Positions 3,212-59,565 of a stretch of DNA of 64,000 bases are shown here, piece by piece. A program made the position numbers and the translations under genes. A model generated the notes under the pieces. That model worked only from the letters and a program-made list of their open reading frames with translations, made no database searches and was not told the DNA's origin. Source of the stretch: an uncultured Lachnospiraceae bacterium (GTDB taxonomy: Bacteria; Bacillota; Clostridia; Oscillospirales; CAG-272); the NCBI GenBank assembly GCA_964638675.1, contig CAZXAU010000001.1, positions 56,966-120,965 on the forward strand, in the 5' to 3' direction. The stretch's first letter is position 1; the number at the start of each line of letters is the position of its first letter.

Positions 3212-3447
3212 GGGGGGAACTTTCTGTAGAAAGTTCCCCCCGAACTCCCTTCAAAGACTTTATTGGAGATGGGGGGTATAGGGCTTCGTTGATGTGGTGC
3301 TGATACTGTAGTTGCTTGAGACATAGCCGTCATGTGGGGCCCCTCCCCCACACGGTTGTTCAAAATTTTTGAGAGTTAATTTGTGTTAAGTAGAGTGTGG
3401 GGCTTTCTTCACTCTTTACTGAACCGTATCTCCCCTACACGGTTTTT
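3212..3447 (+). repeat. Intergenic repeat family A, copy 1 (starts 25 nt after the aminotransferase stop)
   Basis: It begins with the perfect hairpin GGGGGGAACTTTCTGTAGAAAGTTCCCCCC. It then carries the blocks CAAAGACTTTATTGGAGA, GGCTTCG, GTGGTGCTGA and TAGCCGTCATGTGGGG...CCCCACACGG. These are shared with 39806-40060 and 59393-59565 in reverse complement. Confidence 0.9.
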
Positions 3448-3549
3448 CGTAATTACTATAGCAAGTTTGTGTATATGATATATGGCTTTACATAAACAGT
3501 GATGATATACTGAAATAAATACTGTTGCAAAAGATGAAAGGAGCAGATC

Positions 3550-4155
3550 ATGAATTTTGAAAGGATCAGAAAAAATTTAGAAGACCGTGGCTATAAAGTA
3601 TCCTGCTTTGAGAGTGCAGAAGAAGCAGTAGACTACATGGACAGTCAGATCAACGGTAAAACGATCGGATTCGGCGGTTCTGTAACACTGCAGGAAATAG
3701 GACTGTACGAAAGGCTTTCTGTTCACAATGATGTTCGTTGGCATCACCGTATCCCCGAAGGGCAAACAGATAAAGAAGTACGTCTTGCGGCAAATGCGGC
3801 GGATATATATATTTCTTCTGTCAACGGTCTTGCCGAAACCGGAGAGATTATAAATATAGACGGCAGATGCAATCGTGTTTCCTCGATCTTATACGGACAC
3901 GAAAAGGTATATCTTATAGTCGGTGCGAATAAAATTGTAGAAGATTATGAAAGTGCTTTGTGGCGTGCAAGGAATATCGCCGCTCCGCTTAACGCTAAGC
4001 GTTTGGGCGTGAAAACTCCTTGTGCCGTAAAAGCAGACCGTTGTTATGACTGCAAAAGTCCGGATAGAATTTGCAGAGGTCTGTCTGTGCTTTGGTCTAA
4101 GCCTATGACCGGAGAATTTGAATTGGTGTTGATCAATGAGAAACTGGGGTATTGA
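3550..4155 (+). CDS. LUD-domain (LutC/YkgG-like) protein
   Basis: AAAGGAG SD upstream. The 201-aa protein has GKTIGFGGSVTLQEIG and a C-terminal Cys cluster (CAVKADRCYDCKSPDRIC), typical of lactate-utilization LUD-domain proteins. Confidence 0.6.
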   Translation: MNFERIRKNLEDRGYKVSCFESAEEAVDYMDSQINGKTIGFGGSVTLQEIGLYERLSVHNDVRWHHRIPEGQTDKEVRLAANAADIYISSVNGLAETGEIINIDGRCNRVSSILYGHEKVYLIVGANKIVEDYESALWRARNIAAPLNAKRLGVKTPCAVKADRCYDCKSPDRICRGLSVLWSKPMTGEFELVLINEKLGY

Positions 4156-4308
4156 ATAAAGTATGCGTGGCTATGGAAAGGTAGGTTTATAACACTCGCT
4201 TCAAATTCGAGTTTCGCTCAAAAAATGCTTTATTGTTTTCGTATGATTTATCTGCTATAATAAATACACCGAACCGGAACGGAATAATTTATACAAGGAA
4301 AATGCTGT

Positions 4309-5370
4309 ATGAAAACTATAGGAGATAATATTAAAGAATACAGACAAAAGAATAATATGACTCAAGAGCAGCTTGCAGCCTGTCTCAACGTCACATATCA
4401 GGCCGTTTCAAAATGGGAGACCGGCGTATCAAGTCCCGATTTGTCCTTGATTATTCCTATCACAAAAATCTTTCATATTTCTGCCGATGAGCTTCTCGGT
4501 GTCAACGATATAGAACCTGACAGAAGATACGAAGAGCTCAGAGCGGCTTATGATCACACTTACAAAACAGGAGATTTGGCTGAGCGTCAGAGAATATGCG
4601 AACTTGCTGTATCAGAATATCCCGGCGATATGAAATGGCTGATAAATCTCGCCTGGGTGGTTTCTAATCGTTCATTTGATTATGAAGATAACAATAGATA
4701 CATAGCTGAGCAAGAAAAAGCTATTAAATTGTTTGATGCCGTTGTAAAATACTGTAAAGATGACATTATCAGAGGGGATGCTATCGAAGGGATCACGCAA
4801 CTTCTCGGTTGGAGAGGCCGCAAGGACGAAGCGAGAAAATATGCGGAAATGCTTCCCGAAAGAGCAACGGTCACACGTGATGCGGTTTGGGAAAACATAC
4901 TGGAAGGCGATGAACTGATCCTGTTTAAACAAAAACGAATTATGAGTCATATTGAGGGCGTTCTTTGGGATCTGTCATTGATGCCTGCGGTATACACAGA
5001 CATTATGCAACAGATCGTCAGCGTGATGCTTCCGGACGGAAACTACATTCAATTCAATCATTCTTTGTATTTCGCAGTAAAAAAGAAGATCAACCATCTG
5101 CTGAAACACAAACCGAATGTTTCTGAAAATAAGATTCGGGATCTATTGATCGAAATGAAGTCGTATGCCAAATCATATGATGAAATTGTTTTCTCAAACC
5201 CCGGAGTTTACAAATATACCGCCCCGTGGTTCGACCGCATTGAAGAGGACACCCGTGAATGGCTCGAGAACGAGGGAACAACGATGACACAGGATTTCCG
5301 GGAATATCTTGATGAGCCGCAGTTTGATGATCTGCGTGATCACGACTATTTTGTTATGCTTAAGTCCTGA
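4309..5370 (+). CDS. XRE-family HTH transcriptional regulator with a helical (TPR-like) C-terminal domain
   Basis: The N-terminal HTH_3 signature is NMTQEQLAACLNVTYQAVSKWETGVSSPDLSLIIPITKIFHISADELLG. About 280 aa of helical-repeat-like sequence follow. Confidence 0.8.
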   Translation: MKTIGDNIKEYRQKNNMTQEQLAACLNVTYQAVSKWETGVSSPDLSLIIPITKIFHISADELLGVNDIEPDRRYEELRAAYDHTYKTGDLAERQRICELAVSEYPGDMKWLINLAWVVSNRSFDYEDNNRYIAEQEKAIKLFDAVVKYCKDDIIRGDAIEGITQLLGWRGRKDEARKYAEMLPERATVTRDAVWENILEGDELILFKQKRIMSHIEGVLWDLSLMPAVYTDIMQQIVSVMLPDGNYIQFNHSLYFAVKKKINHLLKHKPNVSENKIRDLLIEMKSYAKSYDEIVFSNPGVYKYTAPWFDRIEEDTREWLENEGTTMTQDFREYLDEPQFDDLRDHDYFVMLKS

Positions 5371-5423
5371 TCAAATGCCGCTTGGCATTGTTTCTCGATT
5401 GATTGTTGAGTATATATAAATTC

Positions 5424-5473
5424 ACCGCCGGGAGCGACCGATCACTCCCAGCGGTATTATTACTTATTTTTTT
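5424..5473 (+). terminator. Possible terminator after the XRE regulator gene
   Basis: Stem ACCGCCGGGAG / CTCCCAGCGGT. The T-rich tract (TTATTTTTTT) starts only about 10 nt downstream, so this is not a textbook terminator. Confidence 0.4.
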
Positions 5474-5517
5474 ACAACAAAGTTCTCAAAAACGGGATTA
5501 TAGTATATTTAAAAATT

Positions 5518-5583
5518 AAATAACAGTTATCCCCTACAGGAGGATGTTGATCCTCCCCCCCTGTAGTGGATAACTGTTATTTT
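5518..5583. repeat. Long near-perfect inverted repeat (about 23-bp arms, 8-nt loop)
   Basis: AAATAACAGTTATCCCCTACAGGAGG atgttgat CCTCCCCCCTGTAGTGGATAACTGTTATTT, flanked by A/T runs on both sides. It lies between convergent genes and could act as a bidirectional terminator. Confidence 0.7.
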
Positions 5584-5666
5584 ATACAATTTTGAGATAC
5601 GGCTTATATCAAGCCTTTTTTATATCGTTTGTGCTGTTCATCTACACATAAACAATATAAAATATT

Positions 5667-6140
5667 TTACTGCCGCTTTGAATGAATTAAATGCAGTCCT
5701 ATATGCCCTATGCCCAATATGATGGTTGCGATGATCAATGGCAGGTTACATTTGCATATGCCGATGAGCGCAGATGCAACGACCGGCAGAGTTGCTCCAG
5801 CTACGGGGATTCCCAAAAGACTGCTATAAAAATCCTGCATTCTTCTCTCGCCTGCAAAATACTTTACCCACCACAGCTCATACATGAGCATTGCGATCAA
5901 TGCCGCTATCAGGAAAAGAACTTGCGGAAAGCGGAAGCATTCCTTTTCATCGGAGAAGATCAGCATAAGCGTTGTGACAAGCACCTGACCGATACGCTCA
6001 AAGGCAAGCAAAAATTTATTTTCGTTTTTCTCGTATTCTTCGTATTTTTTCGGTTTGTTTTTTGTCCATATTATATTCGGTATTGTCAGCATCAACAGAA
6101 AGATCAGACCGATATAAGAAAACCCGAAATGCAGATTCAT
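5667..6140 (-). CDS. Hypothetical integral membrane protein (157 aa, about 4-5 TM)
   Basis: The ORF has several hydrophobic spans. I recognise no family. Confidence 0.55.
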   Translation of the reverse strand: MNLHFGFSYIGLIFLLMLTIPNIIWTKNKPKKYEEYEKNENKFLLAFERIGQVLVTTLMLIFSDEKECFRFPQVLFLIAALIAMLMYELWWVKYFAGERRMQDFYSSLLGIPVAGATLPVVASALIGICKCNLPLIIATIILGIGHIGLHLIHSKRQ

Positions 6141-6179
6141 GTTATTTTCCTTTATGTATGCAGATTGCAGATCTGTCTG

Positions 6180-7448
6180 TCAATCTTCTATATATCTGAT
6201 ATTCGCACCGACTGATTTGAGCATTCCAACGATATTGTCATATCCTCTTTCGATAAAGTGTATATCGTCAATTACAGTTGTTCCTTCTGCTGCAAGAGCG
6301 GCTATAATAATTGCACCGCCTGCACGCAAGTCTGTTGAACGAACATTTGCACCGTGCAGTTTTTCTATTCCGTGGATCGTTGCACTCGTCTGATCAACAT
6401 CTATCGATGCACCCATTCTGGTCAGCTCATCTGTATATTTGAATCGTTTCTGATATATATTTTCGATTATTTTACTGTCTCCCGGCACTAATGTGAGAAG
6501 TGCGGCAAACTGTGCCTGCATGTCGGTTGGAAATCCCGGATATGCCTGCGTTTTTATGTTGACCGGAGACAATTCTCCTTTTGTGGCATCGATGATCACG
6601 CTGTCTCCGTTTTCTTCGACGCTTATTCCTATTTCGCCGAGTTTGGCACTGATTGATTCGAGATGCTTTGGAATAACATTTTCAAGCTTAAGCACGCCTC
6701 TTGTTATTGCGGCGGCGACCATATATGTACCTGCCTCGATCATATCGGGGATAATTGCATAGCTCGAGCCTTTCAGCGATTCAACGCCTGTGATCTTAAT
6801 GGTTTCACTTCCTGCACCCTGGATCTTGGCACCGCAGGTATTAAGAAAATTCGCAAGGTCGACAATGTGCGGCTCTCTTGCTGCCGTTTCGATTATTGTC
6901 ACCCCAGGGGTGAGCACCGAGGCAAGCATAATGTTGGCTGTTCCTCCTACCGTGACAAAATCAAAATTTATTTTTGCACTGTGGAGTCCGCCTTGCTCAG
7001 TCATACCTGTGATGCGGTTTTCTTCTTCGTTTATGACAGCACCGAGTGCTCTGAAACCCTTGATATGCTGTTCTATCGGACGTTTATCGCCGAAATTACA
7101 TCCGCCGGGATATCCTATTGTTGTTTTTCCGTACCGTCCGAGCTCTGCACCCATGAGGTAGTATGACGCTCTTGTTTTTTTAAATTCCTCAATAGGAGCA
7201 CTTCCCGGCACAAGATCATCGGTGTTTATTTTGACGGTGTTCGCATTCAGCCAATCTACTTTTGCTCCCATTTTTTTTATAATAGTGAGACATATGTGAA
7301 CATCGATTATATTCGGTACATTTTCTATTATATTATCGCCCTTCGTAAGAACTGTTGCGTATATAATGGGGAGCACAGCATTTTTCATGCCGTTTATGAC
7401 AAGCGAGCCATTTAATTTATTGCCGCCGACAATTTCTATTTTACTCAT
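6180..7448 (-). CDS. murA: UDP-N-acetylglucosamine 1-carboxyvinyltransferase
   Basis: Full-length 422-aa match to the MurA pattern: MSKIEIVGGNKLNGSLVINGMKNAVLPI, the active-site loop GGCNFGDKRPIEQH, and C-terminal RAGGAIIIAALAAEGTT...ERGY. Confidence 0.95.
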   Translation of the reverse strand: MSKIEIVGGNKLNGSLVINGMKNAVLPIIYATVLTKGDNIIENVPNIIDVHICLTIIKKMGAKVDWLNANTVKINTDDLVPGSAPIEEFKKTRASYYLMGAELGRYGKTTIGYPGGCNFGDKRPIEQHIKGFRALGAVINEEENRITGMTEQGGLHSAKINFDFVTVGGTANIMLASVLTPGVTIIETAAREPHIVDLANFLNTCGAKIQGAGSETIKITGVESLKGSSYAIIPDMIEAGTYMVAAAITRGVLKLENVIPKHLESISAKLGEIGISVEENGDSVIIDATKGELSPVNIKTQAYPGFPTDMQAQFAALLTLVPGDSKIIENIYQKRFKYTDELTRMGASIDVDQTSATIHGIEKLHGANVRSTDLRAGGAIIIAALAAEGTTVIDDIHFIERGYDNIVGMLKSVGANIRYIED

Positions 7449-7543
7449 ATCGATATAACGGATGACCGTTTTCCTTTCAATTCAATGCAGTTGTCAATAT
7501 CAATATATGGAATCTGTCAAAAAATTGCTAAAATCGAAAAAAA

Positions 7544-7762
7544 TTATTTTTTTGATCTTACAAGCCAATATCCGAAAAGACCGCCGATGACCGCCGCCCC
7601 GGCAAGTATCAACGTTACTATCGATGCATCTATTCTGATAACATCTCCGACTTCTGCTGTTTGTGCAGGAACGGCGGTATCAGCATATGATGCAAGAGAC
7701 AGAGATATCAATAAAGCGAGTATCAACAGGGCAATTATTATTCCAAACGATCTGTTTTTCAT
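7544..7762 (-). CDS. Small membrane protein (72 aa; N-terminal signal/TM, C-terminal TM plus KK)
   Basis: GAAAGG SD 9 nt upstream of the ATG, two hydrophobic segments, and a position directly upstream of murA on the same strand. The overlapping + strand ORF 7485-7781 has no comparable signals. Confidence 0.5.
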   Translation of the reverse strand: MKNRSFGIIIALLILALLISLSLASYADTAVPAQTAEVGDVIRIDASIVTLILAGAAVIGGLFGYWLVRSKK

Positions 7763-8082
7763 TATTTCGTGCCTTTCATAACTGAGTTTATGGCTTAAAC
7801 AAGCTGAAACCGCCTGATTTTTAGTGTATCATGCAGTTATAGATACCAATATCGATCAATATATTACATTTGATCGCGGCGGTGAAGCTGAGCTTCGGAG
7901 AGGGCAGACAAACCCACCCACTTCATTATAACACATCTTTTCTGATAATAAAAGCCCTTTTTAAAAATATTTTTATTTTTTATATTTTTATGTAGGTATA
8001 AGTAAATAATACAGTGCCTTTCAGTGTTTGTATAAGCCCGTATCATTTTAATGTCATTTTTTTAATATTACAGCCAGATGTC

Positions 8083-8637
8083 TCAAAGCTCAATCACTCT
8101 GTCTGTAAGCATCCGGCATTCATCGGCATTGTGGGAAATAAGGATCACGGTTCCGTGTTCGCAGAGCAATATGTTTTTAATGATTTTTTCTTTAGTACGA
8201 TCGTCAATCCCGTTAAACGGTTCATCAAGCAGAAGTATATCGTGCTTGAAGGCGAGAGCACGGGCAATTGCGGCACGTCTTGCCATTCCGCCTGAAAGCT
8301 CGTGCGGCATCATGTGAAAGCAATCTTCCGAAAGACAAACCGCAGAAAGAGAGTCTTTTGCAATTTTTTCATCATCGCAGACTGACATGACATTTTCCAG
8401 AAGGTCAAATGATGAAAACAGTCTATCTTCCTGAAAAACGGCAGAAATTCTGCCGTCTGTAGAAACTACCCCTTCGCTCGGCAATTGCATACCCATGATC
8501 ATATTGAGGACTGTAGTTTTTCCGCAGCCTGACTTTCCTGTGATTGCAACCTTCTCACCGTCGGCAATAGTAAAATCAAGATTTGTGAATATATAATCTC
8601 TTCCGTAGCTTATGGATACATTTTCAAATTTTATCAC
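8083..8637 (-). CDS. ABC transporter ATP-binding protein (compact, 184 aa)
   Basis: Walker A GKSGCGKTT, signature LSGGMARR, Walker B LLLDEP, H-loop ISHN. It overlaps the upstream permease gene by 14 nt. Confidence 0.85.
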   Translation of the reverse strand: MIKFENVSISYGRDYIFTNLDFTIADGEKVAITGKSGCGKTTVLNMIMGMQLPSEGVVSTDGRISAVFQEDRLFSSFDLLENVMSVCDDEKIAKDSLSAVCLSEDCFHMMPHELSGGMARRAAIARALAFKHDILLLDEPFNGIDDRTKEKIIKNILLCEHGTVILISHNADECRMLTDRVIEL

Positions 8638-9412
8638 TTTTCTTACTTTTTCCTTTCGGTGCAGATATTCTTCCTATAATTGCTTCAAATATCAGCGAAA
8701 TAATAATGATCAGTGCAGTCAATGCAAAAAGATCGGCACTTTCAAAATTTACCTTCGCATCGTACAACAGTCCGCCTATTGAGTATTTTGTTCTGACGAG
8801 TGCTTCGGCAGAAATTCCCGCCTTCCATGCGAGACCGAAAGAGGTCAGTGCTGAGGCTGTAAAATAGCTTTTGATCTCCGGGATATAAATATATTTAATT
8901 TTCTTTCGTATGCCGAAGCCGAAAACTTTGGCAACGTCGAGCTGCTTTGCACCTATATCTGAAAATCCGACAACTATATTCCCCCATACTATCGGAATCA
9001 CTATAAGTGAAGCCGTAAAACCCGGGATCTCATTTTTGCTCATCCACAGGTAAGCAAGGATAATAAACGATGCGACCGGTGTTGATTTGATTATCGCACG
9101 CGCAGGTGCAAGCAGAGCTTTTGCCACCCCCGAAGCGAGCGAGAGCAGAGCAAACAAAGTTCCTGCTGTCAGTCCGACTATATATCCGATGATTACCCTC
9201 AAAATACTGTAAAGCAGTGATCTGAGAAAGATCTCGTTTTTGAAAAGCAGGATCAGATGGTAAAAGCAAAGCTCCGGTGATGGAAAAAGTATCTCTTTAT
9301 TTATACATAGCGATGCGATCTTCCATATTGCGATCCAGAATAAAAGGACCGCAATATATCCAATCGGTGCAGGAATATTTTTTTTATTATTTTTATGCAA
9401 ATATTTCTTCAT
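8624..9412 (-). CDS. ABC transporter permease (NitT/TauT-type)
   Basis: Six-span hydrophobic protein in an operon between the binding protein and the ATPase. Translationally coupled overlaps at both ends. Confidence 0.8.
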   Translation of the reverse strand: MKKYLHKNNKKNIPAPIGYIAVLLFWIAIWKIASLCINKEILFPSPELCFYHLILLFKNEIFLRSLLYSILRVIIGYIVGLTAGTLFALLSLASGVAKALLAPARAIIKSTPVASFIILAYLWMSKNEIPGFTASLIVIPIVWGNIVVGFSDIGAKQLDVAKVFGFGIRKKIKYIYIPEIKSYFTASALTSFGLAWKAGISAEALVRTKYSIGGLLYDAKVNFESADLFALTALIIIISLIFEAIIGRISAPKGKSKKSDKI

Positions 9413-10442: not shown

Positions 10443-10531
10443 TTTTGTTCATCCTTTCACAAATAATCTGTGGTAAAATCGCCTGACGTTTTATATCCTG
10501 AATCGATTTTTCCCGATATATTTATATTATT

Positions 10532-11164: not shown

Positions 11165-11216
11165 CTTTCTTTCCAATCGGTCATTTTTAAAAAAGTGTCT
11201 TAATTGATACACTTTT

Positions 11217-11245
11217 ATTATAATACAGTATGATCGACAAGTCAA
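11217..11245 (-). promoter_or_regulatory. Sigma-A type promoter of the Crp/Fnr gene
   Basis: On the minus strand: TTGACT, a 17-nt spacer, then TATAAT. It lies about 50 nt upstream of ATG 11164. Confidence 0.7.
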
Positions 11246-11276
11246 TAGTATTTTAAAAAAAGTTTGATACAGTACG

Positions 11277-11313: not shown

Positions 11314-11347
11314 AATTATTACATCGGCTTGTCCGGATCAGAGTTTT

Positions 11348-19739: not shown

Positions 19740-19766
19740 AGAATCAAATTATCATATTAAATTAAT

Positions 19767-31753: not shown

Positions 31754-31761
31754 TCAATTGA

Positions 31762-31850
31762 CGATACAACAGGGGTGCCTTTTGGCTGAGATGGGAAACC
31801 GAACCCTTTTAACCTGATACGGATAATGCCGGCGTAGGGAGCAATGTACC
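31762..31850 (+). promoter_or_regulatory. TPP (THI-box) riboswitch aptamer
   Basis: GGGGTGC...GCTGAGA...ACCC...AACCTGATACGGATAATGCCGGCGTAGGGA matches the conserved THI element core. A weak AT-rich hairpin plus T-run follows at about 31848-31872. A thiamine transporter gene lies downstream. Confidence 0.9.
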
Positions 31851-32029
31851 GTGAAAAATTTTTCGGTTTTTCGATCGACCTGACTGTAGATTTGTTTTTG
31901 ATTTGATTTTGCGATCGGATCTGTTCCGGGATTTTCTTTTCGGTAATAAAGTTCTGCTGCGGCTTGCCGCGGCTTTTGTTTTATTCGGGAAATAGATATA
32001 TATACTGTACCGTCAGAAAGGAATTTCTT

Positions 32030-32611
32030 ATGAACAAAAGAAATCAAAATCTATTCATCCTTGTCGAATGTGCGGCTATGATCGCTCTTTCGACCGTACT
32101 GAGCCTTTTGAAGGTAATTCAGATGCCTCTCGGCGGCTCGGTAACTCTTTTCAGTATGCTTCCTGTCTGCTTTATTTCTATAAGGCACGGTGTGAAGTGG
32201 GGACTCGGAGCTGCATTTATTTATTCTGTAGGACAGTTTTTCCTTGGCGGATCACTTGGCTGGGGACTTGATCTTACTACACTTGTGATATGTGCACTTC
32301 TTGATTACATAATCGCTTATACGGTGCTCGGTCTTTCGGGAATCTTTGCAAAAAAAGGTTCTGCCGGCATAGTTTCGGGAACTGTTATGGTTTTGGTTTT
32401 ACGTTTTGCCTGTCATTTTCTCTCAGGCGTAACCATTTGGGAACGTTTGAAGCCTTGGGAGCTTTTCGGAAAAACATTTGAGAATATGCCTGTGCTTTAC
32501 TCCTTCTGTTACAACGGTTTTTATATGATCCCCGAGATAGTTTTCACAACTGTTGCTATCATCGTACTCATAAAAATTCCCGTAATCAAAAAGCTGCTGA
32601 TCAAACAGTGA
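32030..32611 (+). CDS. thiT: Thiamine ECF transporter S component ThiT (YuaJ family)
   Basis: Start moved to ATG 32030 (AAAGGAA SD). Six-span protein beginning MNKRNQNLFILVECAAMIALSTVLSLL. It sits under TPP riboswitch control. Confidence 0.85.
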   Translation: MNKRNQNLFILVECAAMIALSTVLSLLKVIQMPLGGSVTLFSMLPVCFISIRHGVKWGLGAAFIYSVGQFFLGGSLGWGLDLTTLVICALLDYIIAYTVLGLSGIFAKKGSAGIVSGTVMVLVLRFACHFLSGVTIWERLKPWELFGKTFENMPVLYSFCYNGFYMIPEIVFTTVAIIVLIKIPVIKKLLIKQ

Positions 32612-39805: not shown

Positions 39806-40060
39806 GGAAGGGAAGAGGAGGGGAGGGAAGAGTGAAGAGTGAAAAGTGAAGAGGTGGATAGACCAATTAATTTTGAAAAAAATTGATAAAACGTGTGGGG
39901 GAGGGGGGCCCCACATGACGGCTACGAATCAAGCGGCTACAGCTTCAGCACCACTTCAGCGAAGCCCCATACCTTCCCTCTCCAATAAAGTCTTTGAGGG
40001 GGGAGGTGACATTTTCTGTTGAAAATGTCACCGGGGGAACTTTCTACAGAAAGTTCCCCC
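39806..40060 (-). repeat. Intergenic repeat family A, copy 2 (starts 14 nt after the rlmI-like stop)
   Basis: The reverse complement aligns block by block with 3212-3447. It has two tandem hairpins (GGGGGAACTTTCTGTAGAAAGTTCCCCC and GGTGACATTTTCAACAGAAAATGTCACC) and a pyrimidine-rich tail. Confidence 0.9.
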
Positions 40061-40073
40061 ATATTAAATCATT

Positions 40074-41309
40074 TCAAACCACACGGAAAATGTAGAATTT
40101 AAGGTATTCGGTCTCTGGCATATTCCAGAGGATCGGGTGATCGCAGGCTTGTTGCCTGCCTTCGATCTGCATAAGAGATACGCCGGCGTCCTTGGCGGCT
40201 TCGCTTAGCATTGAGCAGAAATAGCTGTCTCTCATAAAATGTGAGCAGGAGCAGGTTGCGAGATATCCGCCTCTCGGCATGGCGCGCATTGCAAGGGTGT
40301 TCAGCCTTAGATAGCCTTTATATGCATTCTTTACGGTGTCTCCCGATTTGGTAAAGGCAGGGGGATCGAGAATGATGAAGTCATAAAGCTTTTTAGAGCT
40401 GTCGACAAGCTGTTGCAGATAGTCAAACATGTCCGAGCGAACGAAATCAATATTGGTAAATCCGTTCAGTTCGGCGTTTTTGCGAGCATTTTCAAGCGCA
40501 GATGCCGATACATCGAGCGCAGTAACGCTTTTCGCACCGCCGGCACAGGCATTGAGGGCAAATGCCCCAGTGTGAGTGCATACATCGAGAACCGACGAGT
40601 TTTTTGCAATTTTACGGATTGCAAGCCGATTGTATTTCTGATCGAGAAAATAACCGGTCTTCTGTCCGTCTATATAATCGACATTGTAGAGTATCCCGTT
40701 TTCGTTTATAATGCATTTTCCGTCAGAGCTACCGAGCAGACCGTGGGCAGAGTAAAAGCCTTTGTACTTTTCCATTCCCTCGAGTAAACGTATTTCACCC
40801 TCGTTACGCTCGTAGATCACATCGATCTTCTCACCGAGCGAGGACAGCTCATCAAGCAGAGCATGATAGATAACATCTTTCCGCAGTTCAATTCCGAGTG
40901 ATAGCACTTCGCTGACAAGCACATTTCCGAAACGGTCGACAGTAAGTCCGGGGAAGCCGTCAGCTTCTCCGAAGATCAAACGGCAGCATTTGAAATCGTC
41001 TCCCGGCATCGTCTTGAATCTGTAAGATACAGCATAAGATACACGGCGTCTCCAGAATCCACCGTCAAAACGGTCATTTGCGTTTTTTGAGAGGACACGC
41101 AGGGCAATCTTTGAATTGTTGTTGTAAAATCCGCTGCCGAGATAATTACCCTTTTTACCGATAATGTCGGCAATGCAACCGTTTTCAAGCGGTAACTCTC
41201 CTTGGATGCGTTCGGCGATCTCATCACGGTAAACCCACAGATGACCGCCTTTCAGGCTTTTTTCAGCTTTTTCGCTGACAATAATTGAAGAATAAGGTCT
41301 TTGTTTCAT
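40074..41309 (-). CDS. rlmI: PUA-domain class I SAM-dependent rRNA (cytosine-C5) methyltransferase, RlmI-like
   Basis: The 411-aa protein has an N-terminal PUA-like region (GHLWVYRDEI), the SAM motif VLDVCTHTGAFAL, and ILDPPAF. Confidence 0.75.
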   Translation of the reverse strand: MKQRPYSSIIVSEKAEKSLKGGHLWVYRDEIAERIQGELPLENGCIADIIGKKGNYLGSGFYNNNSKIALRVLSKNANDRFDGGFWRRRVSYAVSYRFKTMPGDDFKCCRLIFGEADGFPGLTVDRFGNVLVSEVLSLGIELRKDVIYHALLDELSSLGEKIDVIYERNEGEIRLLEGMEKYKGFYSAHGLLGSSDGKCIINENGILYNVDYIDGQKTGYFLDQKYNRLAIRKIAKNSSVLDVCTHTGAFALNACAGGAKSVTALDVSASALENARKNAELNGFTNIDFVRSDMFDYLQQLVDSSKKLYDFIILDPPAFTKSGDTVKNAYKGYLRLNTLAMRAMPRGGYLATCSCSHFMRDSYFCSMLSEAAKDAGVSLMQIEGRQQACDHPILWNMPETEYLKFYIFRVV

Positions 41310-51833: not shown

Positions 51834-52081
51834 TTTAATATTAGATATTCTATAGGTAATTTAAGTAAATATCATTGTAAAAAACGACAGAAAATGATAA
51901 TATCAATTTGATTTTTTAGCTAAAAGGGAAAAAATATTTTTTTTGTTGAAAACCCCTTTACAATATCCATTAAATTTGGTAAACTGACTGCATAGGTATT
52001 TTGAGAAATATGACTGAATCAGTATAAAAAGCAGTCACCGATCGGATTCTGATCGTAATTATATATATTAGGAGGTTCATA

Positions 52082-53221: not shown

Positions 53222-53231
53222 TCATTAATTC

Positions 53232-53266
53232 AGGTGATCCGCTTTTGCAGATCACCTGTTTTTTTG
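53232..53266 (+). terminator. Terminator of rpsA
   Basis: AGGTGATC cgcttttgca GATCACCT followed by GTTTTTTT. Confidence 0.85.
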
Positions 53267-53412
53267 CCCTTTAGAGAAAGGTCTCGGCAAAAACTTTGCT
53301 TGGAGATAAGACGTATAGCTGTACCGAATTCCTTAGCATTTTTTTCGGCTTTTCGAGAAAAGCCTTGGCAAAAGCTTTATTACCGGACAAAACATATAGT
53401 TTTACCGTAATT
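53267..53412 (+). repeat. Two degenerate tandem units of about 65 nt (family C, distantly resembling part of family A)
   Basis: The first unit is CCTTTAGAGAAAGGTCTCGGCAAAAACTTTGCTTGGAGATAAGACGTATAGCTGTACCGAATT. The second is GCTTTTCGAGAAAAGCCTTGGCAAAAGCTTTATTACCGGACAAAACATATAGTTTTACCGTAATT. Confidence 0.65.
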
Positions 53413-53416
53413 TGTG

Positions 53417-53552
53417 TCATACGATTTTTTCAAACATAAATGTTTGAAAAAAACCACCAAAAAGCAAATACTCCCGCAGATGAATGTAAACACTCATCGT
53501 ACGGGAGTATTTGCTTTTTGGTGGTCTTTCAGCATAGCTGAAAGTCGTATGA
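53417..53552. repeat. Nested four-hairpin element (closing stem plus three internal hairpins, one with a 23-bp perfect stem)
   Basis: The closing stem is TCATACGA/TCGTATGA. It encloses TTTTTTCAAACA..TGTTTGAAAAAA, then CCACCAAAAAGCAAATACTCCCG..CGGGAGTATTTGCTTTTTGGTGG, then CTTTCAGC..GCTGAAAG. Confidence 0.75.
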
Positions 53553-53600
53553 TTAATTTTTCAGTCAAGCACTTTAGGAGAAGTTTCTCGATTCCTCTTT

Positions 53601-54914
53601 TCAAAGAGGAATGGAATAATAGTTATCGCCGGCTATAATGGGAGTAGTGAAGAAAACTCTTGAGAGCTCAACGAGGGCAGCGGTGTCAGCTATGCCGGCA
53701 GTTTCATATGAAGAGTGCATAGCGAGCTGAGGCAGACCCACATCCGCAGAATTAATTGAAACCTTGGTGGTGGCAATTCCTCCGAGAGTGGAGCCGCCTG
53801 CCATATCGGATCGATTTGTATAAACCTGATATGGTATGTCGTTTTTGTTGCAGAGAAGTTTAACTACAGATTCGGAGACCGAATCTGTTGTATAACGCTG
53901 AGAAGCATTAAATTTGATTACGACACCGCCGTTGAGGGTAACACGGTTCTGTGAATCGGCGTATTCAGGGTGATTAGGATGAACTGCGTGAGCGTTGTCG
54001 CACGAAAGGAGGAAGGATGAAGCAAGAAGACAACGGAATTCCTCATCTGAAGCAGAAAGAACGATTCGGCGAAGAGTGTCAAAAAGGAATGTAGAAGCCG
54101 CACCCTGCTTGGTTGAGCTTCCCACCTCTTCGTTGTCGAAGCAGGCAAAAACAGGAACAGCTGATGAAGTGTGAGACGAAAGGAAGCCTTTGAGATTAGA
54201 GAAAGCGGATTGAAGATCGTCGAGAGATCTTGACGAAATGAATTCATCTGATGAACCCCAGATTTTTCCTTCAGAGCGGTTGTAAACGAAAAGATCCGTC
54301 CCGAGAATTTTTTCCTTGTCGACATTTGCGGCATCGGCAACTGCATCGATAATACTTTTTTTATCAGTGCCGCAGGAATAGAGCGGAACTGTATCGACAG
54401 AAGCATTGTAATTAAAGCCGGTATTGACAGAACCGTTCATGTGAATGGCTACATTGGGAATAAGGAGAATATCACGGTCAACATTGACAAGCTTGATCTC
54501 AATTCCGCTGTCGGTTTCGACAACGATTCTTCCGGCGACGGAAAGTGGTCTGTCAAGCCAGGTCGAGCAGATCATTCCACCGTAACGCTCGGTGTTGATG
54601 CGGACGAAGTCATTCCCCGAAAGCTCGCATTTGTCTTTGAGCTTGTAGCAGGGAAAATCGCTGTGCGAAGCGGCAATATTGAAGCCGGTTATCTCAGCGT
54701 TCGGAATGCGGAAAGCGATAATTGAAGAGTTGTTACGGATAACGAAGTATTTACCGCCGTTTTCAAGATTCCATTTAGAGCCTTCGCAAAGCTTGGTGTA
54801 GCCATCCGATTCGAGATAGTTTTTAATTGTATCTATAGAGTGAAAGGCACTCGGAGAAGCTTTGATAAAATCAAGAAGCTCACGGGAGAGCTCGGCGTTG
54901 TTGTATTCTTTCAT
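53601..54914 (-). CDS. M18-family aminopeptidase
   Basis: 437 aa. The N-terminus LLDFIKASPSAFHSIDTIKNYLESDGYTKL, plus AASHSDFPCYKLK, DNEEVGS and C-terminal HSSYETAG, are typical of M18 (aspartyl aminopeptidase-like) enzymes. Confidence 0.85.
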   Translation of the reverse strand: MKEYNNAELSRELLDFIKASPSAFHSIDTIKNYLESDGYTKLCEGSKWNLENGGKYFVIRNNSSIIAFRIPNAEITGFNIAASHSDFPCYKLKDKCELSGNDFVRINTERYGGMICSTWLDRPLSVAGRIVVETDSGIEIKLVNVDRDILLIPNVAIHMNGSVNTGFNYNASVDTVPLYSCGTDKKSIIDAVADAANVDKEKILGTDLFVYNRSEGKIWGSSDEFISSRSLDDLQSAFSNLKGFLSSHTSSAVPVFACFDNEEVGSSTKQGAASTFLFDTLRRIVLSASDEEFRCLLASSFLLSCDNAHAVHPNHPEYADSQNRVTLNGGVVIKFNASQRYTTDSVSESVVKLLCNKNDIPYQVYTNRSDMAGGSTLGGIATTKVSINSADVGLPQLAMHSSYETAGIADTAALVELSRVFFTTPIIAGDNYYSIPL

Positions 54915-55028
54915 ATTTTTATATGACCACCTTTCTTGTGGAATTTGGGCTGGTTTTGTGGAGCAAAATCGCTGTTACTATAACGGCGAAAGCCACGAAA
55001 CGCCGTTTGAAAGATTTATCTTTCAAAC
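54915..55028 (-). repeat. Intergenic repeat family B, copy 4 (ends at the M18 aminopeptidase start codon)
   Basis: On the minus strand: GTTTGAAAGATAAATCTTTCAAAC - GGCGTTTCGTGGCTTTCGCC - GTTATAGTAAC - AGCGATTTTGCTCCACAAAACCAGCC - CACAAGAAAGGTGG - TCATATAAAAATATG. It lacks the start-proximal hairpin. Confidence 0.9.
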
Positions 55029-55092
55029 TTATGTCATTTCGGGGAAAAGCTTATGAACAATTGTAGGTAAGTGAAAGCAGAACGAAAGAGAA

Positions 55093-55887
55093 TCAAATGC
55101 CGAGAAGCTCACGGGCATTTTTGTTTGTAAGATCAATAAGCTCGTTCAGCTCCATGCCTCGAATATTTGCGAGAAATTCTGCGGTGTGCATCATCAGAAG
55201 CGAATTGTTGATCTCACCACGATGAGGAACGGGGGTAAGATAGGGGCAATCGGTTTCAATCAGAAGTCGATCTTTTGATACGACAGCTGCTGCTTCAACA
55301 GTTTTTCTTGCATTTTTGAATGTGAGAGAACCGGAAAAAGAGATATAGAAGCCTAAATCTTCAAATTCACGAACCATCTCTGCCGATGCAGAATAGCTAT
55401 GCATGATTCCTCGAATGCCTTTGAATTCTTTGAGAATTGAAATCAGATCTCCGTGTGCTTCACGGTCGTGAATGACGACGGGAATGTCAAGGTCACGGGC
55501 GAGTGAGAGCTGAGAGCGAAACCATTTTTTTTGTGTTTCACGGTCGGTGTCATCATAATGATAATCAAGACCAATCTCACCCAGTGCCTTTGCCTTTGGG
55601 TGTGAAAGCAGCTTTGCAAGTCTTTGCAGAAACTCAGATTCGCTTTCGGATATTTTGCCTGTCTCGTGCGGATAAACACCGAGAGCCGCATAGATATTGG
55701 GATATTTCTCGCAAAGCGACAGAGTATTGATCGAATCTTCAATATCAACCGAAGCGTTGAGTATGTATTCAACACTGCCGGCGAAAAGATGCTCGAGAAG
55801 AGCATCTTTTCCGCCTTCAAGTGAATTGAATTTTTCATCATTGTAATGGGCGTGCGTGTCAAACAGCCCGGAGGATTTAAGAGACAT
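55093..55887 (-). CDS. tatD: TatD-family metal-dependent hydrolase
   Basis: FDTHAHYNDEKF, GEIGLDYHY, VIHDREAH and ETDCPYL motifs. Confidence 0.92.
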   Translation of the reverse strand: MSLKSSGLFDTHAHYNDEKFNSLEGGKDALLEHLFAGSVEYILNASVDIEDSINTLSLCEKYPNIYAALGVYPHETGKISESESEFLQRLAKLLSHPKAKALGEIGLDYHYDDTDRETQKKWFRSQLSLARDLDIPVVIHDREAHGDLISILKEFKGIRGIMHSYSASAEMVREFEDLGFYISFSGSLTFKNARKTVEAAAVVSKDRLLIETDCPYLTPVPHRGEINNSLLMMHTAEFLANIRGMELNELIDLTNKNARELLGI

Positions 55888-55909
55888 AATTTTGCCCTAT
55901 CTTTTCGCC

Positions 55910-57844
55910 TTATCTTATTCTTTCACCGAGAGGTGTTGCATCATCGAGGAAAACAACTCGTACAGTTTCCTCTCCCGATGCAAGGAGCATGCCGTTTGAT
56001 TCTTCGCCGCAAAGAGTTGCAGGCTTAAGGTTGGCAACTACTATAACCTTCTTGCCGATCAGCTCTTCGGGCTTGTAGTGCTTGGCAATGCCCGAAACTA
56101 TCTGACGTTTTTCATAACCGAGATCGACAATGATCTTGAGAAGCTTTTTAGCCTTTTTCACAGGTTCGGCAGATATGATCTTTGCAGATCTCAGTTCTAC
56201 CGATTTGAATGAGCCGTATTCGATCTGTGCTTCCTCATCTTCGGGACGGGCGGTCTCTTGCTCTGCTTGTGCTTGTGCTGCCTGTCTTGCTTCCATGTCG
56301 GCAATGAATTTTGCCTCATCTATTCTTGCGAAAAGAGCAGGTGTCATAACAATGCTCTTGCCGCTTGCAAGCTTTCCGAATGTATAGCTGTCAAGTGAGC
56401 GTTCATCGGTTGAAAGTGCGGCAAAGATTTTTTCCGCAGTCTCGGGAATAATGGGCGTGAGAAGAATTGCACTAAGACGGATAGTTTCAAGAAGATTGTA
56501 AAGAACAGTTCCGAGACGTCCCTTCTTTTCCTCGTCCTTTGCAAGCACCCAAGGGGTGGTCTCGTCAATATATTTGTTCGCGCGGCGTAAAAGCGTAAAT
56601 ACATTTTCTACGGCGTCGGCGATATGGAAGCTTTCCATGTTTTCGGTGTAAAGCTCAAGTGTTTTTTCGGCAAGGGCTTTAAGCTCGGAATCGAATTCAC
56701 CTTCTACCGAATTATCGGGAATAATTCCGCCGAAATATTTCTCGGTCATAGAAAGAGTGCGGCTGACGAGATTTCCGAGATTGTTTGCAAGGTCGGTGTT
56801 ATATCTCTTTATAAGACTTTCATAGGTGATGCTTCCGTCTTGAGCATAAGGCATTTCAGAGAGAACATAGTGACGGACGCCGTCAACTCCGAAAAGATCG
56901 GAAAGCTCATCGGCATACAAAACATTGCCTTTGGATTTGCTCATCTTGTCATTTCCGAAGAGAAGCCAAGGGTGACCAAAAACCTTTTTCGGCAACGGCT
57001 CTCCGAGTGCCATAAGGAATATCGGCCAGTATATCGTATGGAATCTTACGATGTCTTTTCCGATTATATGAACATCGGCAGGCCAGTATTTTTTGTAGCT
57101 CTCACTCGGGTTATCGATATCATATCCGATTGCCGAAATGTAGTTGGTGAGAGCGTCAAGCCAAACATAAACTACATGCTTACTGTCAAAATCCACAGGA
57201 ATACCCCATTTAAAGGAGGTTCTTGAAACGCAGAGATCCTGCAATCCGGGGAGGAGGAAATTGTTGAGCATTTCTTTTCTTCTCGAATCGGGTGCAATGA
57301 ATTCGGCGTGATCTTCATAGTATTTGATAAGCCTGTCAGCGTATTTGCTCATTCTGAATGAATACGCCTCTTCCTTGGTTTTGGTGACCTCTCTGCCGCA
57401 GTCGGGGCATTTTCCGTCCTTGAGCTGTGTTTCGGGGAAGAAGGACTCGCAAGGAACGCAATACCAGCCTTCGTATTCGGTTTTATAAATGTCACCCTGA
57501 TCGTAGAATTTTTTGAAGATCTTCTGTACGTTCTTCTCGTGATAGTCATCGGTCGTGCGGATAAAATGATCGTATGATACGTTCATTCTGTCCCAAAGCT
57601 GTTTGATGTCGCCCGAGACATTATCGACCCACTGCTTTGGTGTGATCCCGCCCGATTTTGCGAGATCTTCGATTTTTTTGCCGTGTTCGTCTGTTCCGGT
57701 GCAGAAAAAAACATCGTATCCTTGCATGCGTTTGAAACGGGCTATTGCATCTGCCATTATAGCTTCATAGGTGTTTCCGATATGCGGTTTTCTTGATGCA
57801 TAAGCTATTGCTGTTGTGATATAATATTTTCCTTTGTTTTCCAT
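55910..57844 (-). CDS. metG: Methionine--tRNA ligase with C-terminal tRNA-binding domain
   Basis: HIGN motif (PHIGNTYEAI), zinc knuckle (CVPCESF...CPDCG), KMSKS (DKMSKSKGN), and a C-terminal EMAP-like domain. Confidence 0.96.
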   Translation of the reverse strand: MENKGKYYITTAIAYASRKPHIGNTYEAIMADAIARFKRMQGYDVFFCTGTDEHGKKIEDLAKSGGITPKQWVDNVSGDIKQLWDRMNVSYDHFIRTTDDYHEKNVQKIFKKFYDQGDIYKTEYEGWYCVPCESFFPETQLKDGKCPDCGREVTKTKEEAYSFRMSKYADRLIKYYEDHAEFIAPDSRRKEMLNNFLLPGLQDLCVSRTSFKWGIPVDFDSKHVVYVWLDALTNYISAIGYDIDNPSESYKKYWPADVHIIGKDIVRFHTIYWPIFLMALGEPLPKKVFGHPWLLFGNDKMSKSKGNVLYADELSDLFGVDGVRHYVLSEMPYAQDGSITYESLIKRYNTDLANNLGNLVSRTLSMTEKYFGGIIPDNSVEGEFDSELKALAEKTLELYTENMESFHIADAVENVFTLLRRANKYIDETTPWVLAKDEEKKGRLGTVLYNLLETIRLSAILLTPIIPETAEKIFAALSTDERSLDSYTFGKLASGKSIVMTPALFARIDEAKFIADMEARQAAQAQAEQETARPEDEEAQIEYGSFKSVELRSAKIISAEPVKKAKKLLKIIVDLGYEKRQIVSGIAKHYKPEELIGKKVIVVANLKPATLCGEESNGMLLASGEETVRVVFLDDATPLGERIR

Positions 57845-57845
57845 G

Positions 57846-58778
57846 CTAATCCTGCCTTTCTCTCAGCTTTGTGAGAAGAATTTTAAAATAATCGGGAAGC
57901 TCGGATTCAAAGCTGAGCTTTTCCCCTGTTATCGGGTGAATAAAATCAATATATTTTGCGTGCAGACACTGTCCTTTAAGAATATCTGCATACTGTTTTT
58001 CAAATTTTGTATTGCCTGCACCGTAGAGCGTGTCTCCCATTACGGGGTGGCCTATCGAGAATGTGTGAACTCTGATCTGATGAGTCCGCCCTGTTTCGAG
58101 CCGCAACCTGACATAGCAAAAGCCGTCAAAGCGTTCAATGACACGGTAATGAGTTATTGCCTCTCTGCCGTCACTTACTATAGCCATTTTAAGTCGATTC
58201 TTGGGCGATCTTCCGATGTTTCCTTCAATAGTTCCCGAATCGTCCTTCAGGTTTCCGACAAGAATACTTTCATATTCTCTTCCGAATGAATGGATCTTTA
58301 TCTGCTCGGCAAGTGCCGTGTGAGCTTCATCGGTTTTGGCAATGATGAGAAGTCCGCTTGTGTCTTTATCGATACGGTGTACGATGCCCGGTCGGATGAC
58401 TCCGTTTATAGAGGAAAGACGCCCTTGCATTGCATACAGCAGTGCGTTGACGAGTGTACCGTCATAGTTTCCCGGTGCGGGGTGTACTACCATGCCTTTG
58501 GGTTTGTTTACAAGTGCGAGATAATCGTCCTCGTATACGATATCTATCGGAATATCCTCGGGAAGAGCCTTGTCGGGGATCGGATCGCTCAGCTCAAGTC
58601 TGATGATATCCCCCTGTACAGGCTTGTATTTATTATCCTTGACTTTTCCGCTGACAAGTATTCTTCCTTCTTCGTTCATTTTCTGAACAGCCGATCTCGT
58701 CAGAGAGCAAAGCTGTGAAAGATAGACATCAAGCCGTGGATTGTCAGGGGTGTCAACATTGAGTATTTCGGTCTTCAT
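57846..58778 (-). CDS. rluD: RluA/RluD-family 23S rRNA pseudouridine synthase
   Basis: N-terminal S4 domain, the catalytic HRIDKDTSGLL motif, and GRTHQIRVH. Confidence 0.92.
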   Translation of the reverse strand: MKTEILNVDTPDNPRLDVYLSQLCSLTRSAVQKMNEEGRILVSGKVKDNKYKPVQGDIIRLELSDPIPDKALPEDIPIDIVYEDDYLALVNKPKGMVVHPAPGNYDGTLVNALLYAMQGRLSSINGVIRPGIVHRIDKDTSGLLIIAKTDEAHTALAEQIKIHSFGREYESILVGNLKDDSGTIEGNIGRSPKNRLKMAIVSDGREAITHYRVIERFDGFCYVRLRLETGRTHQIRVHTFSIGHPVMGDTLYGAGNTKFEKQYADILKGQCLHAKYIDFIHPITGEKLSFESELPDYFKILLTKLRERQD

Positions 58779-59328
58779 CTATTGTATCATTTTGAGGAGC
58801 TTCTACGTTTTCTATGTTTTCGAGTGCCTTTTTTCTTTTTCTTTCTTCGATTATCTCCGATCTGATGTAAGCTATCACAAAAAGAAACGCACCGACAACA
58901 ACGCAGGCATCCGCAACATTGAAAATGTATGACCAGATCTTCGGAAATGCACAGAAATCGAGAAAATCTATAACTGTTCCGTTAAGGAAAGATTCTCCGA
59001 AAAAGCACCTGTCTATCATATTGGAAAAACCGCCGCCGACAATGAGTGAAAACGAAATGTTATAAAGCATACCCATTTTCTTCCTGTATCTTATGAGCAG
59101 GTAAACTATTACAATGAGCGTGACTATAGTCAGCGACATGAAGATCCACCTTGCCGAGCCGAGCATTCCGAATGCCGCACCTTGGTTTCTTATGTAGGTG
59201 AATCTGAATATTCCGGGTATAACGTCAATCGATTGACCGAGCGACATTCCCGAAACAACGAGATATTTTGTCAGCTGATCAATTGCTACAACCAGTATAA
59301 AAATTATTGCTGAAATTACAAGCGACAT
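58753..59328 (-). CDS. lspA: Lipoprotein signal peptidase (signal peptidase II)
   Basis: Four-TM protein with the NQGAAFG and FNVADA motifs. It overlaps rluD by 26 nt. Confidence 0.92.
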   Translation of the reverse strand: MSLVISAIIFILVVAIDQLTKYLVVSGMSLGQSIDVIPGIFRFTYIRNQGAAFGMLGSARWIFMSLTIVTLIVIVYLLIRYRKKMGMLYNISFSLIVGGGFSNMIDRCFFGESFLNGTVIDFLDFCAFPKIWSYIFNVADACVVVGAFLFVIAYIRSEIIEERKRKKALENIENVEAPQNDTIDEDRNTQC

Positions 59329-59392
59329 GAATTACCTCATAAAGGATAGTGAATAATTGAAACTAATCTGTTTTCTTGATATTTAAATTTTA

Positions 59393-59565
59393 CGTATGGG
59401 GCAGGAGATCCACATGACGGCTACAGTTCATGCAGTTACAATCTTAGCACCATTCGAGCGAAGCCACCATACACCCTACACCTCTAATAAAGTCTTTGAT
59501 GGGGGAAGGTGAAATTTTCTGTAGAAAATTTCACCGGGGGAATCATTCTACAGAAAGTTCCCCCG
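59393..59565 (-). repeat. Intergenic repeat family A, copy 3 (starts 16 nt after the ileS stop)
   Basis: The reverse complement aligns with copies 1 and 2. It has hairpins GGGGGAACTTTCTGTAGAATGATTCCCCC and GGTGAAATTTTCTACAGAAAATTTCACC, then the blocks CAAAGACTTTATTAGAGG, GGCTTCGCT and TAGCCGTCATGTGG. Confidence 0.9.

Follow-up and report, generated by a model that had tools for sequence, protein, structure and literature searches.

The BOX elements of Streptococcus pneumoniae and S. suis are built of a boxA, a number (n) of boxB modules and a boxC (Croucher et al. 2011, PMC3049150), and the elements of the REP/BIME/REPIN group (REP, repetitive extragenic palindrome) are short, GC-clamped intergenic palindromes that often lie in operon spacers (Bertels et al. 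2017, PMC5581495). Effects on flanking mRNA that depend on orientation have been described for the ERIC/IRU elements of enterobacteria and Yersinia, in the passages of PMC3049150 that deal with them. Here, we compare with these systems a repeat, denoted family A, that is present in three copies in a stretch of 64 kb (the window; C1:56966-120965, C standing for a contig) of the 2.33-Mb genome of an uncultured Lachnospiraceae bacterium (42% G+C, 32 contigs). Our analysis favors the view that family A, dispersed and non-coding, is built of palindromic modules and is a repeat of the REP/BIME/BOX kind, which we consider likely although well short of certain. The motifs of the repeat appear in no relevant paper in the literature, so far as it was searched, and we regard the repeat family as undescribed and its kind (REP/BIME/BOX-like) as known.

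In the window, the repeat had been noticed in a previous, sequence-only reading as a structured element found only after stop codons and always in the sense orientation of the upstream gene. All three copies are indeed present at 3212-3447 (+), 39806-40060 (-) and 59393-59565 (-); they align over ~170 nucleotides (nt) with a mean column identity of 70%, and a covariance model run on the window recovers exactly these copies (142-166 bits), the remaining matches being reverse-strand echoes of the palindromic hairpins. Much of the anatomy described in that reading holds as well: GC hairpins are seen in each copy, with no T-run 3' of the first ones; the conserved blocks TCAAAGACTTTATT, GGCTTCG, GGTGCT and TAGCCGTCATGTGG are followed by a closing hairpin, in which the arm variation CCCCACACG/CCCCATACG preserves pairing as G-U (33 GC and 4 GU at that pair); and copies 1 and 2 carry a CTCTTCACT-type tail. 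To this we add a conserved 5' box, GTTAGTTTGTGT, located ~8-10 nt upstream of the first hairpin and outside the limits originally drawn; counted from this box, all three window copies touch or contain the upstream stop codon. The predicted folds are more stable than those of shuffled sequences, copy 2 reaching z = -5.2 on the sense and -6.4 on the antisense strand and copies 1 and 3 reaching z = -2.95. The generalization on placement, by contrast, is correct for the window (3/3) but not for the genome, where 10 copies are in the sense and 40 in the antisense orientation, so that the window happens to contain 3 of the 10 sense copies.

Genome-wide, iterated nhmmer searches, in which non-overlapping loci were counted, yielded 62 loci, 40 of them full-length and ~22 partial, and 60 of the 62 lie outside open reading frames (ORFs) of at least 90 amino acids (aa). 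Flanking genes were taken from our own simple, rather crude ORF caller, with start codons and Shine-Dalgarno signatures in support of the calls. The genome-wide census of orientation does reveal a 4:1 bias, but one toward the antisense of the flanking genes: 40 loci are antisense to both neighbors and 10 are sense to both, with 7 between divergent and 5 between convergent genes (binomial p = 2.4e-5, antisense vs sense); the full copies alone are distributed in the same order (27, 7, 4 and 2; binomial p = 8e-4). Put differently, the 5' end faces the start of an opposite-strand gene in 47 of the 62 copies, whereas 15 follow a gene on the same strand. In the antisense copies, the 5' box is only 0-15 nt from the Shine-Dalgarno sequence and start codon of the opposite-strand gene, and in the sense copies, it touches or contains the upstream stop codon. 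A reverse-complement start codon with a Shine-Dalgarno sequence is present within 75 nt in 37 of the 44 copies whose 5' end faces an opposite-strand gene, which validates the gene calls. Copies of both orientations occur inside operon junctions. At one locus (C6:92993-93526), three copies, two of them 95% identical, are arranged in tandem with an N run between them, probably an assembly gap caused by the repeat itself.

The full unit consists, in this order, of the 5' box, one to several tandem hairpin modules, a third hairpin, a variable middle, a closing hairpin and, often, an extension. The box (consensus GTTAGTTTGCGTT) is found in ~28 of the 40 full copies at a constant distance from the first hairpin. 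Two hairpin modules are present in 26 full copies and one in 14, with at least four at a single locus, C15:32460-32670, where GGGGAGTCTTTTTGAAAAAAGTTCC is repeated, indicating that the module number can expand (compare boxB in BOX). The top of the module, TTTC-N4-GAAA, is constant, and its base exists in compensated versions that include GGGGGAAC, GGTGAAAT, GTGAAGC, GGTGTAAT and GGTTACAT. The third hairpin, CCCCTTCAA-AGACTTTA-TTGAAGGGG, displays AAAGACTTTA, and its center is the most conserved stretch of the family in the 40-copy alignment. The segment between the third hairpin and the closing module is variable, with insertions and deletions (indels); the closing module reads GTAGCCG(T/G)CATGTGGGGCCCCTGCCCCACACGG, with the GC closing hairpin CATGTGGGGCCCCTGCCCCACACG. 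In some copies, the frequent AT-rich 3' extension contains a directly oriented second box, and in some, it contains CTCTTCA/CTTTTCA heptads. Most of the ~22 partial loci retain the box, the hairpin modules and the third hairpin and have lost the 3' part.

The heptad tail is a separate, optional module that adjoins copies on C1, C4, C5, C6 and C7 (in the window, at 3395-3447 (+) and 39806-39853 (-)), and each of the six tails that fit the strict heptad pattern genome-wide occurs no more than 160 nt 3' of a copy, on that copy's strand. The tail sits, in copy 1 and at C7:28166, between two 3' halves of the closing hairpin, as if inserted into that hairpin, and at C5:116178, it is preceded by three purine-rich heptads, TTGAGAAA, which could pair with it.

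Hairpin pairing is maintained in the family by changes on both sides. Across the 40 copies, 95.9% of the cells of the main hairpin are paired and 7 of its 11 pairs are changed on both sides, and the closing hairpin is 88.7% paired; the covariation score is 0.144 vs 0.083 in shuffles and 0.053-0.063 with slid partners. The whole structure exceeds all slid controls and, on four of five measures, 500 of 500 shuffles; on the fifth, the number of further pair types, 26 of the 500 shuffles reach the observed count. The stem of the third hairpin is predicted in most copies, but it rests on single-sequence folds rather than covariation, its columns (helix 4) being out of register in the model and 33% paired. 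The two strands fold alike (mean minimum free energies of -58.9 and -59.0 kcal/mol), and departures from pairing of the G-U and A-C types are balanced in the two main hairpins (14 vs 20 and 9 vs 11), so that the pairing constraint cannot be assigned to one RNA strand and fits DNA hairpins just as well as RNA. In the closing hairpin, a conserved A-C mismatch of the sense strand becomes a G-U pair in the antisense strand in 35 of the 40 copies. The search for coding potential found no conserved frame, and a conserved ATG on the antisense strand opens frames that are broken by stop codons or frameshifts in most copies; judged by these features, the repeat is non-coding.

The most direct view of how the repeat reached its present positions comes from two operon junctions. 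In both sister species of the genus (G001 and G002), ileS and lspA overlap as ATGA, and in two other genera, the open frame of ileS extends into the one that holds lspA (measured from stop to stop), leaving a spacer of at most a few tens of nt. In the present genome, the two genes are 253 nt apart with copy 3 between them, the C-terminus of IleS differs, its reading frame closing at the TAG within the box, and lspA is provided with a GAGG-N6-ATG of its own; given the overlap in the sister species, the whole 253-nt spacer is new here. The argB-argD spacer measures 1 nt in G002 and 23 nt in G001, and the genes overlap in G005; here, it is 255 nt long, and an antisense copy with a heptad tail and box takes up all of it between the argB stop codon and the argD ribosome-binding site. 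These comparisons show that copies were inserted into tight operon junctions, with both orientations exemplified. Before the insertion, neither argD nor lspA possessed an upstream region of its own, and both would therefore be expressed by read-through across the repeat; from this we infer transcription of the sense strand of the repeat at some loci and of its antisense strand at the majority.

The cores of the copies share a mean pairwise identity of 0.68, and the only pair above 0.86 is the tandem duplicate on C6, so that no recent burst has taken place; the copies are old and diverged. Same-species contigs from four other samples retain copies 1 and 3. The repeat as a whole is probably dormant.

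A BLAST search with one copy found no match in 40 relatives, and the superfamily to which the repeat belongs is revealed by the covariance model only, with matches of 30-58 bits in 68 of 151 genomes and 46 of 97 genera, all from the taxonomic family of this bacterium. The shared core is a compact pair of hairpins, GGGGAAACTTTTT..AAAAAGTTTCCCC and then CCCCTTCAAAGACTTT; in the alignments and 40 fetched loci, the compact element of the relatives reads GGGGAAACTTTTTGAAAAAAGTTTCCCC, 2-4 nt, and CCCCTTCAAAAACTTT..GGGG, often followed by a T-run. One of these relatives (G006) also has the closing module, CTCATGTGGGGACCCCTCCCCCACAACGG. Among the 34 classifiable elements of other genera, 12 lie between convergent genes, 12 are antisense to both neighbors, 6 are sense to both and 4 lie between divergent genes, so the antisense excess is not significant there (p = 0.24), although antisense copies are likewise close to ribosome-binding sites. 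In 400 genomes from ~95 other families of the class, the strict core pattern gave no match. A specific two-gap pattern was found only in this species in the metagenome collection; viral contigs gave no match, and a phage origin was set aside on that ground. Family A is thus the species-specific elaboration of a superfamily of repeats that is confined to a single bacterial family.

Taken as a repeat of the REP/BIME/BOX kind, family A would behave as follows. Its copies would ride passively on the operon transcript and persist where their ends leave expression undisturbed: in one orientation, the box would supply or adjoin the stop codon, and in the other, it would keep the hairpins apart from the ribosome-binding site by an unstructured, C/A-rich stretch. 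The repeat would have been spread by a hairpin-recognizing enzyme that is no longer evident in this genome, and any effects on mRNA stability or processing would be a by-product that differs from copy to copy.

Several observations weigh against this interpretation. The 4:1 antisense bias remains unexplained by local GC skew, as a proxy of the replication strand (24 vs 19, no match to skew), or by terminator-like tails, and the bias itself rests on a crude ORF caller, although the start codon and Shine-Dalgarno signatures support the gene calls. Some short motifs are near-invariant across genera despite the 68% identity elsewhere, which points to a constraint beyond the needs of a passive repeat. 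Transposition we infer only from the filled vs empty junctions of distant species; no presence/absence difference was detected among the same-species contigs examined. No terminal inverted repeats were found, the 5' box having no inverted counterpart on the 3' side (some copies repeat it in direct orientation ~20-40 nt beyond the closing hairpin), and no recognizable or copy-specific target-site duplication was seen. Finally, no partner enzyme was identified through the RAYT-like, IS200, Ssn/SRM and UPF0213 leads that are discussed below.

The three window copies illustrate the range of the architecture. In copy 1 (+), the 5' box GTTAGTTTGTGTA (3190-3202) begins 2 nt past the TAG stop codon (3185-3187) of the aminotransferase gene and is followed by a single hairpin module, not two, GGGGGGAACTTTCTGTAGAAAGTTCCCCCC (3212-3241). 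The third hairpin (3247-3277) is formed by a C-run and a G-run around TCAAAGACTTTATT (3251-3264), the most conserved motif of the family, and the variable middle GGCTTCG..GGTGCT..GCTTGA (3278-3323), with its indels and stop codons, is non-coding. The closing module TAGCCGTCATGTGGGGCCCCTCCCCCACACGG with its GC hairpin, the helix that is 88.7% paired across the family, occupies 3324-3355, and the 3' extension (3356-3447) comprises a second box-like sequence, AGTTAATTTGTGTT (3374-3387), a split duplicate of the closing hairpin with the pyrimidine heptad tail, and the end GGTTTTT, with a weak terminator-like site at 3397-3412.

In copy 2 (-), a degenerate box, GGTTTGAAATGATTTAAT (40063-40080), encloses the TGA stop codon (40074-40076) of the rlmI-like gene and precedes two tandem hairpin modules (40005-40060), namely GGGGGAACTTTCTGTAGAAAGTTCCCCC (40033-40060) and GGTGACATTTTCAACAGAAAATGTCACC (40005-40032). 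The third hairpin (39972-40003) again contains TCAAAGACTTTATT (39984-39997); the variable middle and closing module occupy 39892-39971, the closing module TAGCCGTCATGTGGGGCCCCCCTCCCCCACACG (39892-39924) being followed by TTTTATCAATTTTTTT and thus terminator-like, and the AT-rich 3' extension (39806-39891) carries the heptad tail, with CTCTTCA/CTTTTCA units at ~39806-39853. In copy 3 (-), the ileS stop codon TAG (59581-59583) lies inside the box GATAGTTTGTGTT (59573-59585). Two tandem hairpin modules (59536-59564 and 59508-59535; together 59508-59564) are followed, at 59393-59506, by the third hairpin (TCAAAGACTTTATT at 59486-59499), the variable middle and the closing module TAGCCGTCATGTGGATCTCCTGCCCCATACG (59393-59423), with no T-run on its 3' side. 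The 3' extension (59343-59392), which includes a second box-like sequence, AGATTAGTTTCAAT (59356-59369), stops just short of the lspA ribosome-binding site (GAGG, 59335-59338; ATG, 59326-59328).

The antisense bias and the near-invariance of the motifs suggest a constraint, which could lie in recognition by a protein or in counter-selection of one of the two transcript orientations. In a more specific version, the two-hairpin core shared across the bacterial family would be what a hairpin-specific enzyme or a host protein recognizes, and the species-specific ends would act as "adaptors" through which the repeat could enter translationally coupled operon junctions with expression preserved, by way of a stop codon in one orientation and of an unstructured, C/A-rich stretch before the ribosome-binding site in the other; we consider this version possible but unlikely.

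A role at the DNA level, in which the hairpins would be recognized or cleaved as single-stranded DNA by a RAYT-like HUH tyrosine transposase, as for REPINs, or by a GIY-YIG nuclease of the Ssn type, as for the NTS/SRM of Neisseria, and in which this interaction rather than an RNA would maintain the repeat, is consistent with the pairing maintained equally on both strands, with its balanced G-U and A-C departures, and with the short motifs conserved across genera; the searches for a suitable enzyme nevertheless make it quite unlikely. The genome does contain a RAYT-like gene (C7:95560-95975 (-)), but it is decayed, with HIY in place of the HUH motif, stop codons and frameshifts, and loss of the C-terminal tyrosine region, and no family A hairpins were found in its flanks. 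On the 3' side of this remnant lies a heptad-like sequence, TTCACTACTCACTCTTC. RAYT-like genes, with intact representatives, are found in 60 of the 151 genomes of the bacterial family; they encode proteins of ~170-200 aa (MENKLPxRKxxRLxxFDYS..VIMPNHIH..QRSFYDHIIR..NPxRW), are often multicopy (up to 7 matches per genome), and many of the matches have internal stop codons. Of the six RAYT-like loci that were inspected, only one has an element nearby (within 100 nt; in G124, 70 nt away), and across the 151 genomes, RAYT-like genes and the repeat co-occur in 31 genomes vs 27 expected (p = 0.24). RAYT was set aside as a partner, given that neither flanks nor co-occurrence lend it support.

The GIY-YIG variant of the DNA-level role draws on the closing module, in which CGTCAT followed by a GC hairpin is laid out like the NTS, CGTCATTCCCGCG..GCGGGAAT (PMC11893778), but the module reads CGTCAT in only 16 of the 40 copies, and the published SRM pattern has 6 matches in the genome, the level of shuffled sequences (4-7), none of them in a copy of family A. 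The only small GIY-YIG protein (C1:32196-32450) is UPF0213-like (structures 1zg2 and 1ywl), its gene has no repeats beside it, and UPF0213 proteins show no significant co-occurrence with the repeat (Fisher p = 0.45). An Ssn/SRM identity was rejected, the SRM pattern not being enriched and no Ssn-type gene flanked by repeats having been found. An IS200/IS605 origin was also considered and rejected: the sole IS200-type Y1 transposase gene (C2:117077-117432 (-)) is frameshifted, its ends are unrelated to the repeat, and no TnpB was found. This TnpA gene has subterminal hairpins of its own that are unlike those of family A.

The antisense excess of 40 to 10 would also be expected if the repeat, read on the opposite strand, were a leader of the downstream gene, its two or three hairpins placed just before an unstructured, C/A-rich stretch and the ribosome-binding site, either a 5' stabilizer that remains after intercistronic cleavage or an insulator that uncouples translation. 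The placement of the box 0-15 nt from the Shine-Dalgarno sequence in antisense copies, similar arrangements in other genera (L190, L204, L208 and L212), and the closing-hairpin mismatch that turns into a G-U pair in the antisense strand all fit this proposal. However, the downstream genes are unrelated to one another, the distance from box to ribosome-binding site varies, 10 copies are reversed in similar spacers, and 12 lie between convergent or divergent genes, which makes a leader function very unlikely.

The sequence-only reading had offered three kinds of roles, of which the REP-like element is the one that our analysis supports; the others, a 3'-untranslated region (3'-UTR) stabilizer or processing element acting in the sense orientation on the upstream mRNA, or a small RNA derived from the 3'-UTR, do not stand as the defining property of the family. 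These options rested on the copies being always sense and always after a stop codon, and they fall with the genome census, which revealed elsewhere in the genome an orientation bias of the opposite sign to the one they call for. It is true that 15 copies (the window's three and 12 more) are located 0-25 nt past the stop codon of a gene with which they are co-oriented, and that stable GC hairpins (z to -5.2) can block 3' exonucleases, as with the REP elements of Escherichia coli (PMC5581495). But 40 of the 50 copies in same-direction spacers are antisense, 47 of the 62 face a gene start, copy 3 is placed between ileS and lspA and not where a transcript ends, terminators or T-runs are not a consistent feature, and in other genera, 20 elements follow a same-strand gene vs 18 that face an opposite-strand gene. 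We therefore consider a 3'-UTR function of the family highly improbable; sense copies may still have a secondary, REP-like stabilizing effect on the upstream mRNA, one that would not define the family. The Rfam scan proposed in the same reading assigned the element to no known RNA family: in Rfam 15, family A has no match at the gathering threshold, and a permissive scan of copy 2 yielded chance matches to microRNA hairpins only. The threshold was reached in the window only by a TPP (thiamine pyrophosphate) riboswitch, RF00059, at 31761-31857 (+), which scores 64.1 bits and is located upstream of the ORF at 31964-32611.

That the repeat has spread as a transcription terminator or a bidirectional insulator is extremely improbable: a T-run often follows the third hairpin in other genera (L186, L187, L196, L198, L208 and L211), the closing hairpin of copy 2, alone among the window copies, scores as terminator-like, and relatives often have elements between convergent genes (12 of 34 classifiable), but at least 5 T in the 8 nt after the closing hairpin are present in only 12 of the 40 full copies, sense and antisense alike, none of the first hairpins has such a T-run, and copies lie inside operons whose downstream genes need read-through.

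If family A is a repeat of the REP/BIME/BOX kind, as we propose, some 60 spacers in this genome, and many more in about half of the genera of the bacterial family, are to be annotated as repeat DNA and not to be read as riboswitch-like leaders, small RNAs or terminators. The two junctions described above bear on the tolerance of operons to mobile DNA: genes that overlap or nearly touch in relatives can be pushed ~250 nt apart by the repeat with their ORFs intact, and in one case, the stop codon lies inside the repeat. If the recognition-site interpretation were true, the repeat would be a Gram-positive counterpart of REPINs specialized for operon interiors, and the 4:1 antisense bias would be a readout of the transcript strand that tolerates the fold.

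Compared with known systems, family A lacks the defining features of REPIN-RAYT systems, MITEs (miniature inverted-repeat transposable elements), intrinsic terminators, SRM or any Rfam family, and the consistent sense orientation downstream of genes expected of a 3'-UTR element is found in only 15 of the 62 copies. With MITEs such as RUP and Correia, it shares the small size and non-autonomous nature, the potential for co-transcription and the ability to supply gene-boundary signals (PMC10969869), but family A has no terminal inverted repeats or target-site duplication and is GC-clamped rather than AT-rich. The NTS/SRM targets of Ssn GIY-YIG nucleases are similarly oriented and near-exclusively intergenic, with a CGTCAT-type 5' flank that abuts a GC-rich stem (PMC11893778), although the published SRM pattern does not match and no repeat-flanked Ssn gene was found. 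The ERIC/IRU elements, imperfect palindromes of 120-170 nt in transcribed intergenic regions according to the portion of PMC3049150 devoted to them, differ in being single long palindromes with terminal inverted repeats and in belonging to another lineage.

In genomic habit, the closest likeness is to REP/BIME/REPIN elements, with which family A shares not only the GC-clamped intergenic palindromes in operon spacers but also a mosaic arrangement, a very low duplication rate with old copies, and the presence of RAYT-like genes in the bacterial family. Extragenic over-representation of the palindrome is evident, and neither flanking of a RAYT gene nor inverted doublets are seen. REPINs are inverted doublets that flank a single-copy RAYT, whereas the modules of family A are tandem and direct, each itself a palindrome, and the RAYT-like gene of this genome is decayed and unflanked, those of the relatives being often multicopy and not tracking the repeat.

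In architecture, BOX is the closest system. The likeness is one of build only, with no sequence relationship known: the hosts of BOX belong to another phylum-level lineage, and the confinement of family A to one Clostridia-type family makes homology to pneumococcal BOX unlikely. The module of family A is a 28-nt perfect hairpin, the family is strongly antisense-biased and placed against ribosome-binding sites, and the proposed similarity of the terminal inverted repeats of BOX to an insertion sequence (IS) element has no counterpart in it. Nevertheless, both families have a conserved head, followed by tandem hairpin modules that vary in number and by a tail that is again conserved (PMC3049150); the order in family A is a box, then one, two or at least four modules, the third hairpin and the closing module. 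Both are also present in tens to ~100 intergenic copies that are highly base-paired, apparently dormant and devoid of an identified partner enzyme, and both can alter gene ends. The near-invariant motifs and the orientation bias hint at a recognition system, but in these respects as in its overall build, family A shows no departure from the known REP/BOX kind.

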